The notes under the pieces are model-generated. The model ran no database searches, was not told where the DNA came from, and worked only from the letters and a program-made list of their open reading frames with translations. Shown here piece after piece: positions 1 through 27,255 of a DNA stretch of 32,000 nt. Each line of letters begins with the position of its first letter. The first letter of the stretch is position 1. Origin of the DNA: Gammaproteobacteria bacterium (GTDB taxonomy: Bacteria; Pseudomonadota; Gammaproteobacteria; JBIOEC01). A program made the translations under genes and the position numbers. Location: assembly GCA_965279305.1 (NCBI GenBank), contig OZ257143.1, positions 630,001 through 662,000 on the forward strand, in the 5' to 3' direction.

Positions 1-42
1 GGCATAAAAATTATTGCAGTCGACTAGCGCAAATATAGGCAT
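1..42 (-). CDS. umuC: Y-family translesion DNA polymerase UmuC-like; only the first 14 codons are in the window (gene runs off the left edge)
   Basis: Hand translation of the reverse complement of 1..42 gives MPIFALVDCNNFYA, matching the conserved UmuC N-terminus (FALxDxNxFYASCE). An AAGGA Shine-Dalgarno-like motif (complement of 49-53) lies 6 nt upstream of the ATG. Absent from the ORF track because it is truncated. Confidence 0.55.
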   Translation of the reverse strand, partial: MPIFALVDCNNFYA

Positions 43-101: not shown

Positions 102-890
102 TTAGGGGATGTGGGCGTGAGTGATAAGGCCAGCGAGTGTCCAGGCTTTTAATAATGAAGCCGCGCGTAGTGCAATATGTTCATCTTCTTGTGAATAGTT
201 AGCTAAGCCTTCACATATTTCTCCAAAGGTAGCGCCTGCTTGCATGGCATCGATAGCCCAGGCTTCATCTTCTGCTATAGAGCAAAAGTGATTCATTAAA
301 TCGTTTCGCCAAAAAATCCAAGGTACAGGTGTTTCATTTATTTCAGGCGCAGGCGGATCTTCTTCATTATTTAAGGCTTGCCATAGCGCTACTACATTCC
401 ACGATAAATTGACGCGATGCAAAGAAGGATGCGGCTGTAATTTCATATTTATCCAATCGTTAGGTGATATATGAGACAGCGTTTCTATAGATATACTCTG
501 TGCATTTTCTGAATCAAATACCAGCGCCATTAACCATTCTATTTGTGCTAGTTCGGCTAGGTATGGATAGTTTTGATAAACACGGTGTTGTTTTAAAAAA
601 ACAGCTAAATGATCTCCAAACCAGCGGATAGAACGAAAGGTAGAAGGATAAACATCGGCATATTCATTTCCCAAAGTGTTAAATCTTTCCTCTCCCATAT
701 AGATTAAAAGGGCTGGATAGGTAATGGTTAATGTTTCAATTAAACGAGATTTGTAAGCATGGGCATAAATAGCTAAGCGTTTTTCTGCAGAGACATTTTT
801 TGTGCTGACAATGGAATTTTTAATTTGTAGTTTTTGTGGATCTAATAAGTGTTGTTGAAATGCGTTTTGTAATAAGGGTAGTTCGCTCAT
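102..890 (-). CDS. DUF2063 domain protein, BufC/HvfC-like partner of the MNIO enzyme in RiPP maturation
   Basis: 262-aa ORF whose start overlaps the stop of the upstream DUF692 gene by 4 nt (887-890). N-terminus LLQNAFQQHLLDP and overall length are typical of DUF2063. DUF692-DUF2063 pairing is the established bufferin/Hvf/methanobactin-like arrangement. Confidence 0.75.
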   Translation of the reverse strand: MSELPLLQNAFQQHLLDPQKLQIKNSIVSTKNVSAEKRLAIYAHAYKSRLIETLTITYPALLIYMGEERFNTLGNEYADVYPSTFRSIRWFGDHLAVFLKQHRVYQNYPYLAELAQIEWLMALVFDSENAQSISIETLSHISPNDWINMKLQPHPSLHRVNLSWNVVALWQALNNEEDPPAPEINETPVPWIFWRNDLMNHFCSIAEDEAWAIDAMQAGATFGEICEGLANYSQEDEHIALRAASLLKAWTLAGLITHAHIP

Positions 891-1738
891 GCCGGTGTTT
901 CCATAGCTAAATGGTGTTTTGCTATTTGACGTGCATGATTAAGTTCTTTTATAAGCTCTTCTAGAGGAGGAATATGATCATCACGCTCAATCATAGTAGA
1001 AATGGGGCCAAAACGTTTTAGTGTTTTGTCATAGAGATCCCAGACCGGATCGACAATAGGATGATCATGTGTATCAATAATGCAATCATCTAAACGAGAA
1101 TGTCCTGCTAAATGAATTTGAAACACTCTATCTAACGGCAATGCGTTAATATAATCTACAGGATTAAATTCATGATTAACGGAACTTACATAAACATTAT
1201 TAACATCTAATAAAATAAGACAATCCGCTTTTTCGGCAATAGCAGATAAAAATTCCCATTCAGACATTACCGATTGTTGATAGGTAATATAGCTCGAGAG
1301 ATTTTCAATTAAGATGCGTTGTCCTAAAAAATCTTGTACTTGATGTATACGAGAAGCAACATGATTGATGGCTTCTTCTGTGTAAGGTAATGGTAATAAA
1401 TCATGCATGTTTTTTTGATCAACACCTGTCCAACAAAGATGATCCGATAACCATTGAGGTTTTACCCGCTCCATTAAAGTTTTCACTTGGCGCAAATAAT
1501 CCCAATCGATAGGATCGGTGCTGCCTATCGATAAAGACACACCATGCATTACCATAGGATATTTTTCGCGAATTCGATCCAGATAATATAACGGTTTGCC
1601 GCCAGGAACTAAGTAATTTTCGGTTAAAATTTCGAGCCAATCTACAGGAGGGTTGTTATTCAAAATAGCCTCGTAATGATCGGGTCTTAAACCTAATCCG
1701 AAGCCTAAAAATTTTTTGTGTGGGGTTGAATATGTCAT
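887..1738 (-). CDS. DUF692 (UPF0276) multinuclear non-heme iron oxidase (MNIO), BufB/HvfB/MbnB-like peptide-modifying enzyme
   Basis: 283-aa ORF with family-typical motifs: GFGLGLRPDHY, WLEILTENY, MHGVSLSIGS, SDHLCW, HDLLPLPYTEEA, LIENLSSY, LLDVNNVYVSSVNH, HLAGH, IDTHDHPI and MIERDD. Confidence 0.9.
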   Translation of the reverse strand: MTYSTPHKKFLGFGLGLRPDHYEAILNNNPPVDWLEILTENYLVPGGKPLYYLDRIREKYPMVMHGVSLSIGSTDPIDWDYLRQVKTLMERVKPQWLSDHLCWTGVDQKNMHDLLPLPYTEEAINHVASRIHQVQDFLGQRILIENLSSYITYQQSVMSEWEFLSAIAEKADCLILLDVNNVYVSSVNHEFNPVDYINALPLDRVFQIHLAGHSRLDDCIIDTHDHPIVDPVWDLYDKTLKRFGPISTMIERDDHIPPLEELIKELNHARQIAKHHLAMETPA

Positions 1739-1754
1739 CGTGTTTTAGAATTAA

Positions 1755-1785
1755 AAAGCGCGCTTAGACTAGCCAAACGCGCTTT
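1755..1785 (-). terminator. Hairpin between the precursor gene and the MNIO gene (possible partial terminator or attenuator)
   Basis: AAAGCGCG (1755-1762) pairs with CGCGCTTT (1778-1785) around a 15-nt loop. On the minus-strand RNA the GC core is followed by UUUUU and preceded by an A-tract. Confidence 0.4.
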
Positions 1786-1805
1786 ATTTTACAGCAGATG
1801 CATTA

Positions 1806-2090
1806 TTATTGATTATTTTGGTTCATATGATCTTTGATCATTGTGCCGCCTTTAGCTTTACAATCAGCTGCAGACATTTCCATAACGCCTTTACCTTTGC
1901 AAGAATTCATTCCTTTGCAAGAGTTCATTGATGTTTTGCATTGACCGTGGCCTTTACATGAGTTAACACCTTCACATTTAACCATGTGGTTTGTGCCCAT
2001 ATTAGCGTAAGCAGAAGAAGCAACAATTGCAGTAAATGCAAGAGCAGCGGCAGCAGCAACAGTTTTAGTAACAGACTTTGTATTGTTCAT
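1806..2090 (-). CDS. Sec-signal-bearing six-cysteine precursor peptide (bufferin / HvfA-like RiPP precursor)
   Basis: 94 aa. N-terminal signal peptide (KTVAAAAALAFTAIVASSAYA|N), then a 65-residue Lys/Met/His-rich region with 6 Cys in repeated contexts (VKCEG, NSCKG, GQCKT, NSCKG, NSCKG, ADCKA). GGAG Shine-Dalgarno 8 nt upstream. Lies directly upstream of the DUF692/DUF2063 genes. Confidence 0.85.
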   Translation of the reverse strand: MNNTKSVTKTVAAAAALAFTAIVASSAYANMGTNHMVKCEGVNSCKGHGQCKTSMNSCKGMNSCKGKGVMEMSAADCKAKGGTMIKDHMNQNNQ

Positions 2091-2148
2091 AAATTAGCTC
2101 CATTTGATTATGTTGATGACTAGTTTACTACTTAGTACTTCAAAATCG

Positions 2149-2176
2149 ATAATAGAGGTTTGGCATTAAAAGTCAA
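2149..2176 (-). promoter_or_regulatory. Putative sigma70 promoter for the precursor/MNIO operon
   Basis: On the minus strand: TTGACT (complement of 2171-2176), 16-nt spacer, TATTAT (complement of 2149-2154), about 55 nt upstream of the precursor ATG. Confidence 0.35.
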
Positions 2177-2205: not shown

Positions 2206-2304
2206 ATGGAAAAACGTATGAATTTAAAACAATATCGCAGTAAAAGAAATTTTAATAAAACACCGGAGCCTAGCAAAAAAAAGAGTTTAGAAAAAGCTAA
2301 ATAA
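2206..2304 (+). pseudogene. Relic of the N-terminus of a LigD 3'-phosphoesterase domain (32 codons)
   Basis: Hand translation gives MEKRMNLKQYRSKRNFNKTPEPSKKKSLEKAK*. LxxYxxKRxFxxTPEP is the signature N-terminal motif of the bacterial NHEJ ligase LigD phosphoesterase domain. The ORF stops before the catalytic core and its last 8 nt overlap the pabA 3' end. Confidence 0.4.
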
Positions 2305-2866: not shown

Positions 2867-4302
2867 ACATCTACCAATGCTTTTTTTAATGCTTGAGATT
2901 TAACTAGGGTTTCTTGGTATTCTTTTTTAGGATCAGAGTCTAAGGTAACCGCACCACCCGCTTGAAAAGTGACCGTATTATTTTGTATCGCAAATGTTCG
3001 AATAATAATAGACATATCCATATCACCGGTAAAACTAATAAAACCCAAACTTCCACAGTAAGGCCCTCGGGAATGTGGCTCTAGCTCTGCAATAATTTTC
3101 ATTGCTCGAATTTTAGGAGCGCCCGTAATAGAACCGCCAGGCAAAGTGGCTTTAAGTAAATCTATTGCATGCAAAGAAGGTTTTAATTGGCCTTTAATGA
3201 CAGATACTAAATGATGAACACTTTCATAAGTTTCTAGACCGCAAAGAGTTTCTACTACAATGCTATCATCTTCGCATACGCGCGATAAATCATTGCGCAT
3301 CAGATCTACAATCATGACATTTTCAGCGATGTCTTTTTTGCTTTGAATTAATTGAGCGCGCAATTGCTCATCTTGCTCTGGTGTGGATCCTCTTTTAATG
3401 GTTCCTTTGATGGGGCGTGTTTCTACCCTACCCTGACTCACAGAAATAAATCGTTCTGGAGAGGCGGATGCAATAATCGTATTACCCCAATTCATATAAG
3501 CCGAAAACGGCGCTGGGTTGGTGTAATGCAATTTTTCGTATAGTTTAAAAGGAGCAAAAGTATTGTCTAACGTAACAGTAAAACGCTGCGATAAATTCAC
3601 TTCAAAAATATCGCCTTCTCTAATGTAATACTGCGCTTTTTTAACAACATCCATATAGCTGTTTTCATTAAAATGAGAATAAATATCGCTGGCTGCACAA
3701 AAATGATGAGAAGGAATATTTTGTTTAGATGGAGAAGCTAATAAAATTTTTACTGTTTGTAAACGTTGTTGTGCACGTGCTTGTTGACGCTCTCCTACCC
3801 TTTCTGGGAAGCCCGTAGAAATAATCCAGCAGCGTTTTGTTTTATGATCAAAGCTAATCACCACATCATAAAAACCAATGGCCAGATCCGGAAAATTCAT
3901 ATCATCTATGGTGCTAGGTATTTCTTCTATATAGTGAGCCATTTCATAAGAAAAAAAACCAGCAGCTCCGCCTTGAAAAGGAGGTAACTCCGATGAAAGA
4001 GTTGGCATGGAAAAACAAATTAACTTTTCTTTTAATAGTGTAAAAGGGTCGATAACTTCGCTATTCTCTTCTAGCCAGTGTTTATTTTTGATGGTAATCG
4101 TTTCAAAAGGATCAAATACAATATAACTATATCGATTGGTTTCTTGAAAAGCATTTTTACTATTTGCGCTATCTAGAAAAATAGCGCCGGAGTGATGAGC
4201 GACCAATGAAAATAAAGCAATAGGTTCTGTGTAAGGAATTTCTTCAACACACGATGCTGGTAAAATATTTTTTGGTAAAACGTTAGAACGAGTGCACAAC
4301 AT
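2863..4302 (-). CDS. pabB: Aminodeoxychorismate synthase component I
   Basis: 479 aa chorismate-binding enzyme (FEVNLSQRF, SPERF, IKGT, MIVDLMRND, PGGSITGAPK, RGPYCGS). Paired with pabA. Confidence 0.8.
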   Translation of the reverse strand: MLCTRSNVLPKNILPASCVEEIPYTEPIALFSLVAHHSGAIFLDSANSKNAFQETNRYSYIVFDPFETITIKNKHWLEENSEVIDPFTLLKEKLICFSMPTLSSELPPFQGGAAGFFSYEMAHYIEEIPSTIDDMNFPDLAIGFYDVVISFDHKTKRCWIISTGFPERVGERQQARAQQRLQTVKILLASPSKQNIPSHHFCAASDIYSHFNENSYMDVVKKAQYYIREGDIFEVNLSQRFTVTLDNTFAPFKLYEKLHYTNPAPFSAYMNWGNTIIASASPERFISVSQGRVETRPIKGTIKRGSTPEQDEQLRAQLIQSKKDIAENVMIVDLMRNDLSRVCEDDSIVVETLCGLETYESVHHLVSVIKGQLKPSLHAIDLLKATLPGGSITGAPKIRAMKIIAELEPHSRGPYCGSLGFISFTGDMDMSIIIRTFAIQNNTVTFQAGGAVTLDSDPKKEYQETLVKSQALKKALVDV

Positions 4303-4798
4303 GAATAACTACACCCCAAATATACGCACCAGTTTCTGGATTAATTTCGATAGGAGAAAATTGTGGATTTTCTGGCATTAGCCATTGATGATTTTTTTTA
4401 ATACTCAAACGTTTTACTGTCAGCTGTCCATCTATTGCAGCAATGACAATTTTGCCATCAGTCGGTTCTAAACTTCTATCAACCACTAATAGATCACCTT
4501 CATGAATATTGGCACCTATCATGGAATCGCCGGTAGCACGCACTAAAAAAGTGGCGGCAGGATGTTTTATTAAATACTGATGTAAATCTAATTTTCCTTC
4601 CATAAAATCATCGGCAGGAGAAGGAAAGCCCGCTTGCACTTTTGAACTATATAAAGGTAATCGATGCCCACGATGTGCAATAAATTCCGATACTTCTGTG
4701 ACTAGGCTGAGTGGAATACGGATAGGTTTAGTCGATTCGCCATGAGGCCCCTGCCCTTTAGGTCTGCCTGCACCGGTTCGTGCGCCGCCTCTTGCCAT
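4283..4798 (-). CDS. umuD: UmuD-like S24 self-cleaving peptidase (polymerase V accessory subunit family) with a long Gly/Arg-rich N-terminal extension
   Basis: The C-terminal ~115 aa align by eye with E. coli UmuD: VQAG|FPSPADD cleavage region, GDSM catalytic Ser, TVKRL catalytic Lys, and WGVVIHVV. About 56 residues precede the predicted Ala-Gly cleavage site, versus 24 in E. coli UmuD. Confidence 0.8.
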   Translation of the reverse strand: MARGGARTGAGRPKGQGPHGESTKPIRIPLSLVTEVSEFIAHRGHRLPLYSSKVQAGFPSPADDFMEGKLDLHQYLIKHPAATFLVRATGDSMIGANIHEGDLLVVDRSLEPTDGKIVIAAIDGQLTVKRLSIKKNHQWLMPENPQFSPIEINPETGAYIWGVVIHVVHSF

Positions 4799-4959: not shown

Positions 4960-5898
4960 ATGACGACAGCGTTAACCCTTTCCCAACAGCATTTACCTAC
5001 CCTGCCCTCCACCTTATTGGACGGCGCCTTAGCCGGCCCAGGCGGCAGTATTGATGCGTATATTAGTCGCGTCAGTAAGATTCCCATGCTTTCATTTGAA
5101 GAAGAACAACAACTGGCGCAACAGTGGTTCTATGAAGAAAACGTAGACGCGGCTAAACAATTGGTGATTAGCAATTTACGTTTTGTCGTACAAATTGCGC
5201 GCGGCTATATGGGATACGGATTAGCATTACCGGATTTAATTCAAGAAGGTAATGTGGGATTAATGAAAGCAGTTAAACGTTTTGATCCTGCTGTGGGTGT
5301 TCGTTTAGTGTCGTTTGCAGTGCATTGGATTAAATCGGAAATTCACGATTACGTTATTCGTAACTGGCGAATTGTGCGTATCGCTACTACCAAATCACAA
5401 CGTAAATTATTTTTTAAATTACGGGGCTCTAAAAAAAGATTAGGCTGGTTCACTGAAGATGAAATGAATCAAGTGGCTCAAGAATTAAATGTGAGCGTAA
5501 ATGATGTGCGTGAAATGGAAAAAAGATTGCAAGCGCATGACGATTCATTTGATTCAGAAGTATCAGATAGCGAAGAAGATAGCTACACATTATCTCCAGC
5601 GGATTATTTAACAAATGCAGAAGGTGATCCCTTGGTTCAGTTAGAGCAATGGGAAGAAGAGCAGCAAAAAGAAAAATCATTAGCTAAAATCTGGCAAGTA
5701 TTAACGCCTAGAGAGCAAGATATTATTCAATATCGTTGGTTGGCAGAAGAAAAATCTACTTTACATGATTTGGCTGCACGTTTTAATATTTCAGCAGAAA
5801 GAGTGCGCCAAGTAGAGCAGAATGCAATGAAAAAACTACAGAAATTGTTGCCATCAAGCGACAGTACGCTTGGCAATGCATTGAGCAGCGATTCGTAA
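4960..5898 (+). CDS. rpoH: RNA polymerase sigma-32 (heat-shock sigma factor)
   Basis: 312 aa with region 2 (LVISNLRFVVQIARGY, DLIQEGNVGLMKAVKRFDP), the RpoH box (QRKLFFKLR) and region 4.2 (ERVRQVEQNAMKKL). Confidence 0.92.
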   Translation: MTTALTLSQQHLPTLPSTLLDGALAGPGGSIDAYISRVSKIPMLSFEEEQQLAQQWFYEENVDAAKQLVISNLRFVVQIARGYMGYGLALPDLIQEGNVGLMKAVKRFDPAVGVRLVSFAVHWIKSEIHDYVIRNWRIVRIATTKSQRKLFFKLRGSKKRLGWFTEDEMNQVAQELNVSVNDVREMEKRLQAHDDSFDSEVSDSEEDSYTLSPADYLTNAEGDPLVQLEQWEEEQQKEKSLAKIWQVLTPREQDIIQYRWLAEEKSTLHDLAARFNISAERVRQVEQNAMKKLQKLLPSSDSTLGNALSSDS

Positions 5899-20683: not shown

Positions 20684-21712
20684 ATGAGAAAAAAAGCGGC
20701 GACAGTACGTGCCCCACGCCCAGAGCCAGCTAGCCATTTATCTGCATCTGCATCTGAAAGAACAGAGAATGCCAAAAAACTACTACCTCAATTAATTCCG
20801 TTAGCAAAAAAATATGATGCGGCACATCCTGCTTACCCTCCTGTTTTACAAGTAATTAAAGAGACGGTTCAGTATGCTCCCAGAGGAAATCGTGAAGCAC
20901 AAAATAGAGCGGGTAATTTTTATTATTCTGGGGAGTATAATATTCCCCAGAATTTTGAATTAGCGCTCTATTGGTTTAATGAAGCAGCTAACCGAGGACA
21001 TTCCGCATCAAGATTACAAGTTGCAAAAATGCTTCAAGAAGGTGAAGGTACTCAACCTGACAAGGCAGCCGCTGCCCAATGGTATGAGTTGCTTGCAGAT
21101 GAGGGCAATTTAGTGGCATTAAATAATCTGGCAATGATGTATAAAAATGGGGATGGCGTACCGCAAGATGATGAGAAGGCTTATTATTATATGTTTACAG
21201 CAGCCACATATGGTGATCCTCTCGCCCATTTTAATTTAGGAAAGTTGTTTGAGCAAGGGAGCGGGCAAACAAAAGTTGATCTAAATGAAGCTGAATCTTG
21301 GTATAGAAGAGCAGCTGCTAAAGGTCATCCGGATGCTCTAAATAATTTGGGTGTTATCAAAGCTAAAGGGGCACATCTATCAGAAATGCTTGGTTTAAAT
21401 TCGAAACCGGAAGTGGATGAGGCTATATCGATATTTACAACTGCAACTAGGCAGGGAAATGGTCTTGCTGCTTTTAATTTGGCACAGTTTTATCGATTCG
21501 GCTGTGTGGTAGAACAAAATGATCAAAGAGCTTTGGATTTACTTTCTTTAGCGGCAGATAGAGGTGTTGAACAAGCGATTATTGCGCGCAGAGAAATGAA
21601 CTCTGATGGTAAGCGAAAAAGGGATGATGCTGATATATCGGGGTCATCATCACCTGAACCCGAACCCAAAAGAGTTGCTGCGGGATCTGCACGTCCAGCA
21701 GGCCCCGCGTAG
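20684..21712 (+). CDS. Sel1/SLR repeat protein with no signal peptide and basic/Pro-rich disordered termini (candidate secreted effector)
   Basis: 342 aa. About six Sel1-like repeats (for example AQNRAGNFYYSG..ALYWFNEAANRGH, ALNNLAMMYKNGDGVPQD and AESWYRRAAAKGHPDALNNLG). The N-terminal ~45 aa and C-terminal ~40 aa are low complexity. AAGGAG Shine-Dalgarno upstream. Confidence 0.8.
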   Translation: MRKKAATVRAPRPEPASHLSASASERTENAKKLLPQLIPLAKKYDAAHPAYPPVLQVIKETVQYAPRGNREAQNRAGNFYYSGEYNIPQNFELALYWFNEAANRGHSASRLQVAKMLQEGEGTQPDKAAAAQWYELLADEGNLVALNNLAMMYKNGDGVPQDDEKAYYYMFTAATYGDPLAHFNLGKLFEQGSGQTKVDLNEAESWYRRAAAKGHPDALNNLGVIKAKGAHLSEMLGLNSKPEVDEAISIFTTATRQGNGLAAFNLAQFYRFGCVVEQNDQRALDLLSLAADRGVEQAIIARREMNSDGKRKRDDADISGSSSPEPEPKRVAAGSARPAGPA

Positions 21713-25384: not shown

Positions 25385-26644
25385 ATGGATCTGACACCTA
25401 TGCAACTGTTTCTAGCGTTTGACAGCGAGTACAAGCAACATAGCGATACAGTAGGGAAACAGCCTATTATCGCGTGGACTTTGCTAGACGATCAGGGCCA
25501 AGTGAAACAATCTGGCGGCAAAACACCGTTGGCAGAAATCGCCGAAAAATGTAAATCTTTACCTCTCACAGTTCATGTGTTTATTATTAGCCCCGATGTG
25601 GTGATTATGCAGGTGCCGCGTCCTGCAGGATCTTTCAATAAAATTCGCCAGGCCATTCCTTTTTTATTAGAAGAACACTTAGCGGAAGATATTGAGTTAC
25701 TCCATTTTTCAGTTATCAACCCTAGCAGTAGCAATACTATATCGATAGCTGTTATTAATAAAATACTGATGAAAGAATGTGTGGATATGTTATTAGCTGC
25801 ACGTTTAGTGCCGCAAACTATTATTCCATTTAGTTTGGCTTTGCCCATCCCTGAAGAATCGCAATGGACGATATTAACGAATTCCGAGTATGCGTGGGTG
25901 CGTTCCGGTGCTTTTGGTGGTTTTTCATTAGAGCGTTCGATGGTAACCAATTTATTAGAAACGCTTCCACCGGCTCAGTTACCTAAAAGCATCAATTGGA
26001 TCACCGCAGAAAATATTAAAACAGAAATAGATGAATGTAAAAAACGTAATATAGAAGTGAAAAAAATAACGATTCCTTCTAAAGGCACAAATAATTGGTT
26101 GGAATATATTGCCAAAACTTATAAGCCAGCGCCACATGTTAATTTATTGCAAGGTGAATTTAGTATACAGCAACAAACCGGCTCAGATAAACGTTGGTGG
26201 GATTTAGTCAAAAAATTATCAGTCGCTATTGTTGTAGTATGGTTTGTGGGTTTAGTCGGGCAATATTTCTTTTTACGTTGGGAACATTTTTACTTACAAA
26301 CACAAATTGAAAGTGTTTATCGCGAAGTATTTCCTGATACGCCTATGGTCAGCAGCCCTCGTACTATTTTTGAAAGAGAAATTGGGCTGGTATCTAGTGG
26401 AAAAGTCGGCAGTGATTTTTTAAGTTTATTATTACGTGTAGGCGAAGTGACCAGCAATTTTCCGCAAATTCAAATAATAGAAATTGTTTATAATGAAAGA
26501 GCGTTAACCATTAGTATGATGGCTGATAATTTTTCGCGGCTTCAACAATTAGATGAAAAAATGCAAGAAGTTGGATTAACGGTAGTGCAAGAAACCGCTT
26601 CGAGTAGCGGCGGAACTGTTAATGCAAGATGGAAAATATCTTAA
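25385..26644 (+). CDS. lspL: Type II secretion system protein L
   Basis: 419 aa. Cytoplasmic domain with AIPFLLEEHLAEDIELLHF, a single TM segment (LSVAIVVVWFVGLVGQYFFL) and a periplasmic C-domain. Followed by gspM. Confidence 0.8.
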   Translation: MDLTPMQLFLAFDSEYKQHSDTVGKQPIIAWTLLDDQGQVKQSGGKTPLAEIAEKCKSLPLTVHVFIISPDVVIMQVPRPAGSFNKIRQAIPFLLEEHLAEDIELLHFSVINPSSSNTISIAVINKILMKECVDMLLAARLVPQTIIPFSLALPIPEESQWTILTNSEYAWVRSGAFGGFSLERSMVTNLLETLPPAQLPKSINWITAENIKTEIDECKKRNIEVKKITIPSKGTNNWLEYIAKTYKPAPHVNLLQGEFSIQQQTGSDKRWWDLVKKLSVAIVVVWFVGLVGQYFFLRWEHFYLQTQIESVYREVFPDTPMVSSPRTIFEREIGLVSSGKVGSDFLSLLLRVGEVTSNFPQIQIIEIVYNERALTISMMADNFSRLQQLDEKMQEVGLTVVQETASSSGGTVNARWKIS

Positions 26645-27255
26645 GAGATCTTATGAATTTTAAAAATGATAAAATAAAAGCATTGGTCAATCAAACGCTC
26701 AATCAGGTAAAAACCTATGCATTACCTTTGCAGCGCCAAGTGCAAGAAAGTGAATATTGGAAACAAGCAGAGCAGCGCTGGAAACAATTAACCAAGCGCG
26801 AACAATTATTATTAATGGGAACCGGTGCGCTAACTGCTGTTTTAATTTTTTATCAATTAATTTATTCACCCATATCAACAGCCATTACACGATACCAACA
26901 AGATGTGATTAATGATCAAGAGCTGTTAGTGTTTATGAAAGCTTCTGTTCCTCGTTTATTAGCTGCTACCGGACAATCAAAACCCGAAGAACCTATTCGA
27001 GCAGATATGTTTCTTCCTACCGTTGAAAGTAGTTTAACAGCGGATGGAATGATGGAAGTGGTAACTAGCATGAGTTTATCGAATGATAATACTATCAGCA
27101 TACAATTTGATGCAGTGGAATTGGATGGCTTATTGGGTTGGTTAATTCAAATTCGAAAAAAATATGGGATCCAAGTGGATATGTTTAGTGCAAGACCTGT
27201 TGAGCTTCCGGGATTTGCAAGTGCCACTGTTCAATTGAAGTTGATGGGCAGCTAG
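26629..27255 (+). CDS. lspM: Type II secretion system protein M
   Basis: 208 aa. LTKREQLLLMGTGALTAVLIFYQLIYSP (bitopic TM) and the periplasmic domain are typical of GspM. The start could instead be ATG 26653, 9 nt after the lspL stop. Confidence 0.75.
   Translation: MENILRDLMNFKNDKIKALVNQTLNQVKTYALPLQRQVQESEYWKQAEQRWKQLTKREQLLLMGTGALTAVLIFYQLIYSPISTAITRYQQDVINDQELLVFMKASVPRLLAATGQSKPEEPIRADMFLPTVESSLTADGMMEVVTSMSLSNDNTISIQFDAVELDGLLGWLIQIRKKYGIQVDMFSARPVELPGFASATVQLKLMGS

Follow-up and report, generated by a model that had tools for sequence, protein, structure and literature searches.

What does the three-gene cluster at the start of this gammaproteobacterial window (the whole 32,000-nt stretch of DNA that was analysed) make, and does anything set it apart from its published relatives? 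The initial annotation described an MNIO-type RiPP operon of the bufferin / HvfABC class, built of three co-oriented, tightly linked genes. All three were found on the minus strand, where it had placed them, together with the following features:

2149..2176, minus strand: sigma-70-like promoter candidate TTGACT-16-TATTAT with 10/12 consensus matches, in the spacer between bufA2 and the ligD_N remnant.
2090..1806, minus strand: bufA2 ORF, six-Cys precursor, 94 aa.
2004..2090, minus strand: bufA2 signal-peptide part, residues 1-29, MNNTKSVTKTVAAAAALAFTAIVASSAYA, from inspection of the sequence, with cleavage predicted after AYA.
1806..2003, minus strand: the 65-residue bufA2 core peptide (30-94) together with its stop codon, from the NF050166 match.
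1745..1785, minus strand: terminator-like hairpin from a terminator scan, with a 13-bp stem and a 5-nt loop, followed by UUUUUAAUUCU.
1738..887, minus strand: bufB, MNIO/DUF692, 283 aa, from profile matches to PF05114 and NF050167.
890..102, minus strand: bufC, DUF2063-family partner, 262 aa, from the PF09836 match and an AlphaFold model.

A GGAG lies 7 nt 5' of the bufA2 ATG, and bufB and bufC share the 4-nt overlap described initially (887-890). At 42..1 of the minus strand stands MPIFALVDCNNFYA, the N-terminus of a UmuC-like Y-family polymerase, in agreement with the umuC start reported 59 nt 3' of bufC; the counterpart of this gene in the sister strain, L081 (the one strain used for such comparisons, with coding regions ~95% identical), is an IMS-family protein of 420 aa. 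Neither a DoxX gene nor a metal regulator was present among the window ORFs scanned (~30 of the 39 of at least 100 aa), nor was a copper-responsive regulator or copper gene seen among the scanned ORFs of the 32-kb window, where the sole sigma factor was an RpoH-like gene (4960..5898). The genes flanking the cluster are housekeeping genes.

Profile searches placed the cluster in the bufferin class, with the BufA2, BufB, and DUF2063 profiles all passing their cut-offs. The DUF692 and DUF2063 models, on which the initial annotation had staked its reading, matched BufB (PF05114, MbnB_TglH_ChrH; 382 bits, E = 1.7e-114) and BufC (PF09836; 60.4 bits against a cut-off of 27.2, E = 2.1e-16), respectively. 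BufB also matched NF050167 (MNIO_BufB; 392.9 bits against a cut-off of 310, E = 6.1e-118), and residues 11-84 of the precursor matched the NF050166 BufA2 equivalog (83.8 bits against a cut-off of 60, E = 7.3e-24). While the bufferin half of the proposed class stood, the HvfABC half did not. The HvfB and HvfC models scored below their cut-offs (297.1 bits against 360 and 36.6 bits against 142), EGKCG repeats were absent from the precursor, and Asp, not Phe, follows the catalytic Asp in BufB. The Buf1/GIG type was rejected on the lack of a DUF2282 match to the precursor (PF10048, none at E <= 0.1), a umuC-like gene after bufC, and no DoxX among the scanned ORFs. Methanobactin MbnABC was likewise rejected, with TIGR04159 (MbnB) scoring 60.5 bits against a cut-off of 325, a DUF2063 partner, and a precursor that is a 94-aa Sec substrate. 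Judged from these matches, the cluster belongs to the Buf2 (BufA2/BufB/BufC, 'Cys-Lys') subfamily, not to Hvf and not to Buf1/GIG.

Gene order was largely retained across 79 related loci, with BufC downstream of bufB in 75. The initial annotation had held that relatives devoid of a Cys-rich peptide gene would speak against its reading; a BufA2-like ORF was located directly upstream of bufB in 60 of the 79 loci and absent there from 19. A crude scan of those 19 loci returned no convincing alternative Cys-rich precursor, and several of them lie at the end of a contig or have their precursor at another site or on the opposite strand.

The N-terminus of BufA2, judged by eye, has the Sec-type features expected of the exported peptide that had been proposed: a basic n-region (K5, K9), a hydrophobic stretch (10-26), and AYA at 27-29, with no lipobox Cys and no twin-Arg. 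It reads as a Sec/signal peptidase I signal, and published bufferin precursors are cut at the predicted signal-peptidase site (PMC11626156). As first described, the peptide has six Cys, at residues 39, 45, 51, 58, 64, and 77, and Lys directly follows each of Cys45, Cys51, Cys58, and Cys64. These four are the predicted modification sites, with Cys39 and Cys77 predicted to form a disulfide pair. BufA2 and its relatives have in common the motif C.G.N.CKG...CKT..N.CKG.N.CKG...C, and all 119 homologous cores examined contain exactly six Cys. The core holds eight Met and three His and ends in a Met/His/Asn/Gln C-terminal tail, giving a Met plus His share of 17% against a median of 5.3% for the 119 homologous cores. 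PDB sequence searches with BufA, and likewise with BufC, gave chance-level matches only.

The closest solved relative of BufB by sequence is 3BWW (H. somnus). Using the published iron-ligand identities of MbnB (PMC9060507), BufB H65, H100, E145, D178, and N181 align to MbnB H54, H90, E133, D163, and N166, where H65 was assigned through the 7DZ9 alignment and its invariance, the numbered MbnB (7TCR) alignment stopping short of it. H209, D222, H224, and E251 align to MbnB H192, D208, H210, and E239, and all nine positions are invariant in 79 relatives. Within the ERDD motif of BufB, D253 aligns to the proposed catalytic base and D254 replaces Phe, as in Cys-Lys-type MNIOs (PMC13097082), the latter residue being kept in 78/79 relatives.

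The AlphaFold model of BufC (pLDDT 95.2) found its best PDB fold match in 3DEE (NGO1945; E 1.4e-5, target-normalised TM 0.71). It also superposes on TglI (8HCI_A) and gave weak fold matches to the RRE domains of TbiB1 and ThcOx. As modelled, BufC consists of an N-terminal DUF2063 domain and a C-terminal RRE-like winged-helix domain; NCBI names its homologues 'HvfC/BufC N-terminal domain-containing protein'.

The hairpin is intercistronic, after the stop codon of bufA2 and ahead of the bufB start codon. Its fold z-score is -3.3, none of 200 shuffles folded equally well, and its sequence is identical in L081. Counting stems of at least 8 bp within 70 nt 3' of the bufA2 stop, a hairpin was present in 56 of 60 related loci, compared with 19/74 after bufC and 10/79 inside bufB. 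Loci with a hairpin after bufA2 span several orders, and the main text of two bufferin survey papers makes no mention of it. From this conservation of structure we infer a role as terminator or mRNA stabiliser.

The promoter-like element that the initial annotation assigned to the operon fared less well. A candidate site was found, but the seven such sites in 1-2500 were not above shuffles (9.0 +/- 3.0), and the call at 2176..2149 is weak when taken alone. Approximately 190 nt 5' of the bufA2 ATG were, however, almost invariant, with only a handful of differences from L081. A search of 2080-2310 for inverted repeats or an operator found neither. Because no copper regulator, operator, or copper gene was seen, copper induction is an assumption for this cluster.

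Taken together, we consider it highly probable that the cluster is functional and directs the biosynthesis of a Buf2-type bufferin ('captophorin'), each step of which is proposed by homology. Transcription would most likely begin in the short divergent spacer 5' of bufA2, and the hairpin and U-tract after bufA2 probably terminate or stabilise most transcripts; substrate mRNA would exceed bufBC enzyme mRNA, with the latter dependent on read-through. The RRE-like C-terminal domain of BufC would capture the precursor in the cytoplasm, and its DUF2063 domain would dock onto BufB. BufB, a predicted TIM barrel whose site would hold two to three irons, would use O2 for four-electron oxidations of Cys45, 51, 58, and 64 in their Cys-Lys context, each modified Cys becoming a 5-thiooxazole with a change of about -4 Da per site. 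The modified precursor would then be exported through Sec and its signal peptide removed after Ala29. Formation of the Cys39-Cys77 disulfide in the periplasm would bring the total shift to about -18 Da on the 65-residue peptide, whose thiooxazole thiol and nitrogen, possibly with Met/His side chains, may sequester excess periplasmic copper. In Caulobacter vibrioides Buf1/Buf2, the central Cys each change by -4.03 Da and a disulfide probably links the first Cys to the last, both BufB and BufC are required and together suffice, DoxX is dispensable, and the bufferin peptide is copper-induced and copper-protective (PMC11626156). The 5-thiooxazole chemistry has since been extended across the class (PMC13097082). 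Links to Au, Cd, and Hg have been published for some family members, and metal specificity could differ.

A further proposal, which we offer tentatively and think rather less likely to be right than wrong, is that the hairpin is a family-wide device for a high precursor:enzyme transcript ratio and that the core represents a Met/His-enriched Buf2 subtype with extra Cu(I) sites. If so, the four thiooxazoles would be joined by further Cu(I) sites with thioether and imidazole ligands, and this small-genome, Legionellales-like and possibly host-associated bacterium would have a periplasmic copper sponge of higher capacity.

The same biosynthesis might instead serve another job than the buffering of copper stress, namely mainly the handling of another metal (gold, cadmium, mercury, or zinc), copper storage or delivery, or interaction with a host, as has been proposed for H. 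influenzae HvfA. Several transition metals elicit a response from gig operons (PMC11626156), MerC-Buf2 fusions tie some Buf2 domains to mercury (PMC12452194), and HvfA of H. influenzae has been described as a virulence factor (PMC11252979). The lack of a copper gene or copper regulator nearby, among the scanned ORFs, would also fit such a role, and the richness in Met and His could shift metal preference. Met- and His-rich periplasmic peptides are, however, typical Cu(I) binders, which weakens this alternative, and the characterised Buf2/Buf1 peptides and Lys-Cys captophorins are linked to copper. We regard another job as improbable.

Could the cluster be a non-functional relic, intact by chance in a gene-losing genome of ~1.87 Mb but with its expression or its use already lost? 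Comparison with the sister strain revealed flanks that are decaying or variable: ligD_N upstream of bufA2 is a 32-codon stub, separated from it by a divergent spacer of 115 nt, and a higBA-like pair found in the sister strain's flank is absent from that of the window. No neighbours were in common with 80 GTDB relatives, so the genomic context is uninformative on function. Against this, the three ORFs are intact with all catalytic residues kept, the upstream region and hairpin are conserved between strains, and dN/dS against L081 was 0.04 for bufA2, 0.08 for bufB, and 0.13 for bufC, no higher than for the neighbouring housekeeping genes pabA and pabB. All three buf genes are under purifying selection, which makes decay a very unlikely account. 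Least credible is the older annotation of a DUF2063 DNA-binding regulator, a sugar-isomerase-like DUF692 TIM barrel, and an unrelated small secreted or membrane protein, which survives in the Pfam name of PF09836 ('Putative DNA-binding domain'), the deposition of 3DEE as a putative regulator, and the term 'uncharacterized membrane protein' used for the small protein in some sources, but which is effectively refuted already by published biochemistry on homologues, since DUF2063 partners bind precursor and MNIO and are required for modification (PMC11252979, PMC11626156), the BufC model matches TglI, partner of the MNIO TglH, and the family as a whole keeps the three genes together in one order.

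Given a Buf2 bufferin operon as the preferred reading, how much of it is new? The minimal, DoxX-less layout noted initially is not a peculiarity: C. vibrioides buf2 is also bufA2-B2-C2 without DoxX (PMC11626156), DoxX was not among the 47 co-oriented genes that immediately follow bufC in the closest relatives, and published surveys report no regulator genes in Buf2 clusters. Likewise, published work on L. pneumophila contradicts the view that no such cluster had been characterised in a Legionellales-type bacterium. The GIG operon lpg2105-2108 (Buf1 type) was reported in 2017 as gold- and copper-induced (PMC5413113), and no genome is reported to carry more bufferin genes than that of L. pneumophila subsp. 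fraseri; two of these are Buf2, and one of its Buf2 peptides has been modelled (PMC12452194). Support for an intracellular Legionellales source of the window itself is weak: among named relatives, the best are MAGs assigned to Legionellales, Coxiellaceae, and Berkiella, and named AtpD matches at 84-88% identity included Candidatus Berkiella, a Legionellales MAG, Ectothiorhodospira, and Aliikangiella.

The bufferins, with tens of thousands of clusters, had been described before, along with their chemistry and their occurrence in Legionella, and the additions made here are small, consisting of the conserved hairpin after bufA2 and the unusually Met/His-rich core. NCBI curated models already name two of the three buf proteins automatically, and importance beyond correct annotation is slight. 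A small-genome gammaproteobacterium near Legionellales retains a Buf2 copper-peptide system under purifying selection, consistent with the published idea that bufferins aid bacterial copper survival, including in phagocytes. The hairpin and the Met/His-rich core may be of use for work on bufferin expression and metal stoichiometry.

Among known systems, C. vibrioides buf2 (Buf_6/12Cys; PMC11626156) shares the A-B-C order without DoxX, the DUF2063 partner, a Sec-type precursor with a core of ~61-65 residues and six Cys, central Cys in a Cys-Lys context, and an MNIO with Asp at the Cys-Lys determinant position. Unlike that alphaproteobacterial system, the cluster described here comes from a gammaproteobacterium near Legionellales/Berkiella, has no SigF/NrsF-type control evident in the window, and encodes a core in which Met and His make up 17% of the residues, far above the family median of 5%. 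The L. pneumophila GIG operon likewise combines an MNIO, a DUF2063 partner, and an exported Cys peptide in a Legionellales host, and its promoter responds to Au and Cu (PMC5413113). In contrast to the window cluster, it encodes DoxX and a DUF2282 precursor of the four-Cys Buf1 type, and it lies within the ICE-beta-ox mobile element rather than between housekeeping genes. HvfABC/oxazolin, fontiphorin, and gonophorin (PMC11252979, PMC13097082) also pair an MNIO with an RRE-containing DUF2063 partner and follow the same logic, in which Cys of a signal-peptide precursor become copper-binding heterocycles; their substrates, however, contain Lys-Cys repeats (EGKCG), and the position of BufB Asp254 is occupied by Phe in their MNIO. 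Methanobactin MbnABC is alike in MNIO fold, iron ligands, and a Cys-derived copper-binding heterocycle, whereas MbnA, unlike BufA2, is short, leader-dependent, and secreted as a chalkophore with oxazolone/thioamide pairs, and its partner MbnC belongs to a different family from the DUF2063 partner BufC.

The minus strand of the window between positions 102 and 2176 carries three closely packed ORFs, encoding a putative precursor peptide (BufA2), a multinuclear non-heme iron oxidative enzyme (MNIO; BufB), and its DUF2063 partner (BufC). The cluster was matched in every detail reported by the initial annotation, including the ORFs, the 4-nt overlap, the promoter-like site, and the 59-nt gap past bufC. 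Its features are as follows:

2176..2149, minus strand: sigma-70-like site, TTGACT-16-TATTAT
2090..1806, minus strand: bufA2, 94-aa ORF, with GGAG 7 nt 5' of the ATG
1785..1745, minus strand: 13-bp hairpin followed by a U-tract, between bufA2 and bufB (fold z-score -3.3)
1738..887, minus strand: bufB, 283-aa ORF
890..102, minus strand: bufC, 262-aa ORF, overlapping bufB by 4 nt

Shuffled sequences contained sigma-70-like sites just as often, hence the site at 2176..2149 proves little alone.

Profile searches bore out the earlier call of a bufferin-class system with DUF692 and DUF2063 proteins and narrowed it to the Buf2 branch of the bufferins. BufB scored 382 bits against Pfam MbnB_TglH_ChrH and 392.9 bits against the curated NCBIfam equivalog model BufB (cut-off 310), BufA2 83.8 bits against the curated NCBIfam equivalog BufA2 (cut-off 60), and BufC 60.4 bits against Pfam DUF2063 (cut-off 27.2). 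The grouping with HvfABC did not hold, since scores were below cut-off for both HvfB (297 versus 360) and HvfC (36.6 versus 142), ruling out the Hvf/oxazolin branch. The DUF2282/GIG (Buf1) branch was likewise rejected; the 94-aa peptide had no match in a Pfam profile search. For the ApyH, ChrH, and MbnB models, the window proteins scored under every cut-off.

By inspection, BufA2 begins with what reads as a Sec signal, made up of lysines K5 and K9, hydrophobic residues 10 to 26, and AYA at 27 to 29. Six Cys follow, at residues 39, 45, 51, 58, 64, and 77, in a motif that could be aligned across related BufA2 sequences. Met (8) and His (3) together account for 17% of the mature core of about 64 residues. 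The median over 119 homologous cores was 5.3%, and no peptide apart from this one and the two most closely related to it reached such a level. The exact BufA2 sequence was not found in a collection of 15 billion proteins, where exact BufB and BufC, both encoded on one 1.87-Mb contig in NCBI/ENA, were present; the bufA2 gene may be uncalled, or called otherwise, in the deposited annotation.

BufB was aligned to solved MNIOs, with iron ligands taken from the MbnBC structure paper (PMC9060507). All nine ligand positions (H65, H100, E145, D178, N181, H209, D222, H224, and E251) are present and were invariant across the 79 closest relatives; H65 was assigned by its invariance and by alignment to 7DZ9, since the one to the numbered MbnB (7TCR) begins past this residue. 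In the ERDD motif, D253 aligned to the proposed catalytic base and is followed by D254, a position occupied by Asp in Cys-Lys-type MNIOs and by Phe in Lys-Cys types (PMC13097082). Asp was found here in 78 of 79 relatives, and it fits the substrate encoded in the window, as Lys directly follows each of the four central Cys. A PDB sequence search with BufC returned no match. Its AlphaFold model, built with 47 homologs as input, was confident (pLDDT 95.2), and the best structural matches were NGO1945 (3DEE, the DUF2063 prototype) and TglI, partner of the MNIO TglH, with weaker matches to the RiPP recognition elements of TbiB1 and ThcOx. Legionella micdadei homologs are named "HvfC/BufC N-terminal domain-containing protein" at NCBI.

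The 80 nearest BufB loci found among GTDB representative genomes included Legionellales (78% identity), Coxiellaceae, Berkiella, and Legionella nautarum, along with Steroidobacteraceae, Burkholderiales, and other MAGs. A co-oriented BufA2-like ORF was the immediate upstream neighbor in 60 of 79 loci, and 66 of 80 loci had such an ORF at some position. BufC came next after BufB in 75 of 79, the remaining four being contig ends. No neighboring genes were common to the window and these loci among the flanks compared, and DoxX was absent from the co-oriented genes directly after bufC (0/47). Of the latter, 17 encoded a PALP plus CBS (cystathionine beta-synthase-like) protein, mostly in Steroidobacteraceae MAGs as judged from ORF N termini, which may tie cysteine/sulfur metabolism to Buf2 clusters in that family. 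Precursors also varied. In L. nautarum (locus L057, 5261-5890, plus strand), an exported protein of ~210 aa 5' of the BufB homolog has Gly/Ser/Asn-rich repeats and then many NNCKSY-type repeats (~17 Cys), and is a Cys-Lys precursor variant far larger than the six-Cys form. In Berkiella and related MAGs (L025, L041, L047, L052, L058, L073, and L074), the BufA2 signal peptide ends in a lipobox-like LFATGC/LLAAGC, so that these are probably lipoprotein versions, in agreement with the ~16% of Buf2 reported as lipoproteins (PMC12452194).

In 56 of 60 related loci, the 70 nt after the bufA2 stop contained a hairpin with an unbroken stem of 8 bp or more (median stem 12 bp, starting ~12 nt past the stop), compared with qualifying hairpins in 19/74 after bufC and 10/79 inside bufB. 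Hairpin sequences vary among loci, hence structure is what is conserved. It likely acts in partial termination or 3'-end stabilization, giving more precursor than enzyme mRNA, as is common for operons encoding RiPPs and bacteriocins; no mention of it was found in the main text of two bufferin surveys. In a single-sequence MFE fold of 1730-1815 (minus strand), an outer helix surrounding the terminator hairpin pairs AUGCAUCUG, just past the bufA2 stop, with CACGAUGACAU in the bufB start region. bufB has no obvious Shine-Dalgarno sequence, and in this folding model the outer helix might hide its start codon.

The buf cluster is maintained rather than decaying. Compared with the sister-strain contig L081 (Logan SRR28248352), syntenic with the window over ~20 kb, dN/dS was 0.04 for bufA, 0.08 for bufB, and 0.13 for bufC (neighboring pabA, 0.09; pabB, 0.16), and ~190 nt 5' of bufA and the bufA-bufB spacer were nearly unchanged. 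At 59 nt past bufC, the minus strand encodes MPIFALVDCNNFYA, the N-terminal start of a umuC-like Y-family polymerase whose sister-strain counterpart is an IMS-family gene of 420 aa. In that strain, genes for a HigB-like toxin and an HTH_3 antitoxin (L081 10786-11331, minus strand) separate bufC from umuC, versus a gap of only 59 nt (43-101) in the window, so the buf flanks differ by insertion/deletion among close strains. Divergent from and 5' of bufA2, a 32-codon ORF (2206-2304, plus strand; MEKRMNLKQYRSKRNFNKTPEPSKKKSLEKAK) without a Pfam match of its own is what is left, at the 5' end, of a LigD_N (PF13298) gene; the sister strain has this gene whole (198 aa, L081 8077-8673, minus strand), and ~510 bp of it are gone in the window. 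In both strains, pabB-pabA-bufA-bufB-bufC lie between a UmuD-like S24 peptidase gene (4283-4798, minus strand, overlapping the pabB ORF as listed by 20 nt) and the umuC-like gene (1-42, minus strand), all co-oriented, an arrangement resembling a umuDC pair whose halves lie some 4.2 kb apart after a split.

For BufB, BufC, and AtpD, the best named relatives came from Legionellales, Coxiellaceae, Berkiella, and Legionella, and GC content was 39.6%. The window also encodes GspL/GspM type II secretion proteins (25385-27255) and two Sel1-repeat proteins (20684-21712, plus strand; 27269-27760, minus strand), one with five repeats. Legionella and Coxiella commonly encode Sel1-repeat proteins, which here give a weak taxonomic hint only. 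Together these traits are consistent with a Legionellales-like bacterium, short of a placement.

The mechanism we propose is modeled on Buf1/Buf2 of C. vibrioides, where central Cys carry a -4.03 Da change, the first and last Cys are likely disulfide-linked, and BufB plus BufC are necessary and sufficient, DoxX being dispensable (PMC11626156). The 5-thiooxazole chemistry was later extended to the whole class (PMC13097082). By homology at every step, BufC would hand the precursor to BufB, which would oxidize Cys45, 51, 58, and 64 to 5-thiooxazoles; the product would leave via Sec with signal peptidase cleavage after Ala29, form a Cys39-Cys77 disulfide, and chelate periplasmic copper.

The initial annotation took such a cluster to be uncharacterized in an intracellular Legionellales-type bacterium, which overstated its novelty. 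More than 21,000 precursor peptides of the class have been counted. In L. pneumophila, the GIG operon, of Buf1 type on ICE-beta-ox, was shown in 2017 to respond to gold and copper (PMC5413113), and subsp. fraseri is the reported extreme: it has seven MNIO and six DUF2063 genes besides five for Buf1 and two for Buf2, and a model of one of these Buf2 peptides has been published (PMC12452194). The buf operons of C. vibrioides are induced by copper and protective (PMC11626156), and its characterized buf2 operon has three genes without DoxX, exactly as in the window. The cluster is thus a routine addition to an already described kind.
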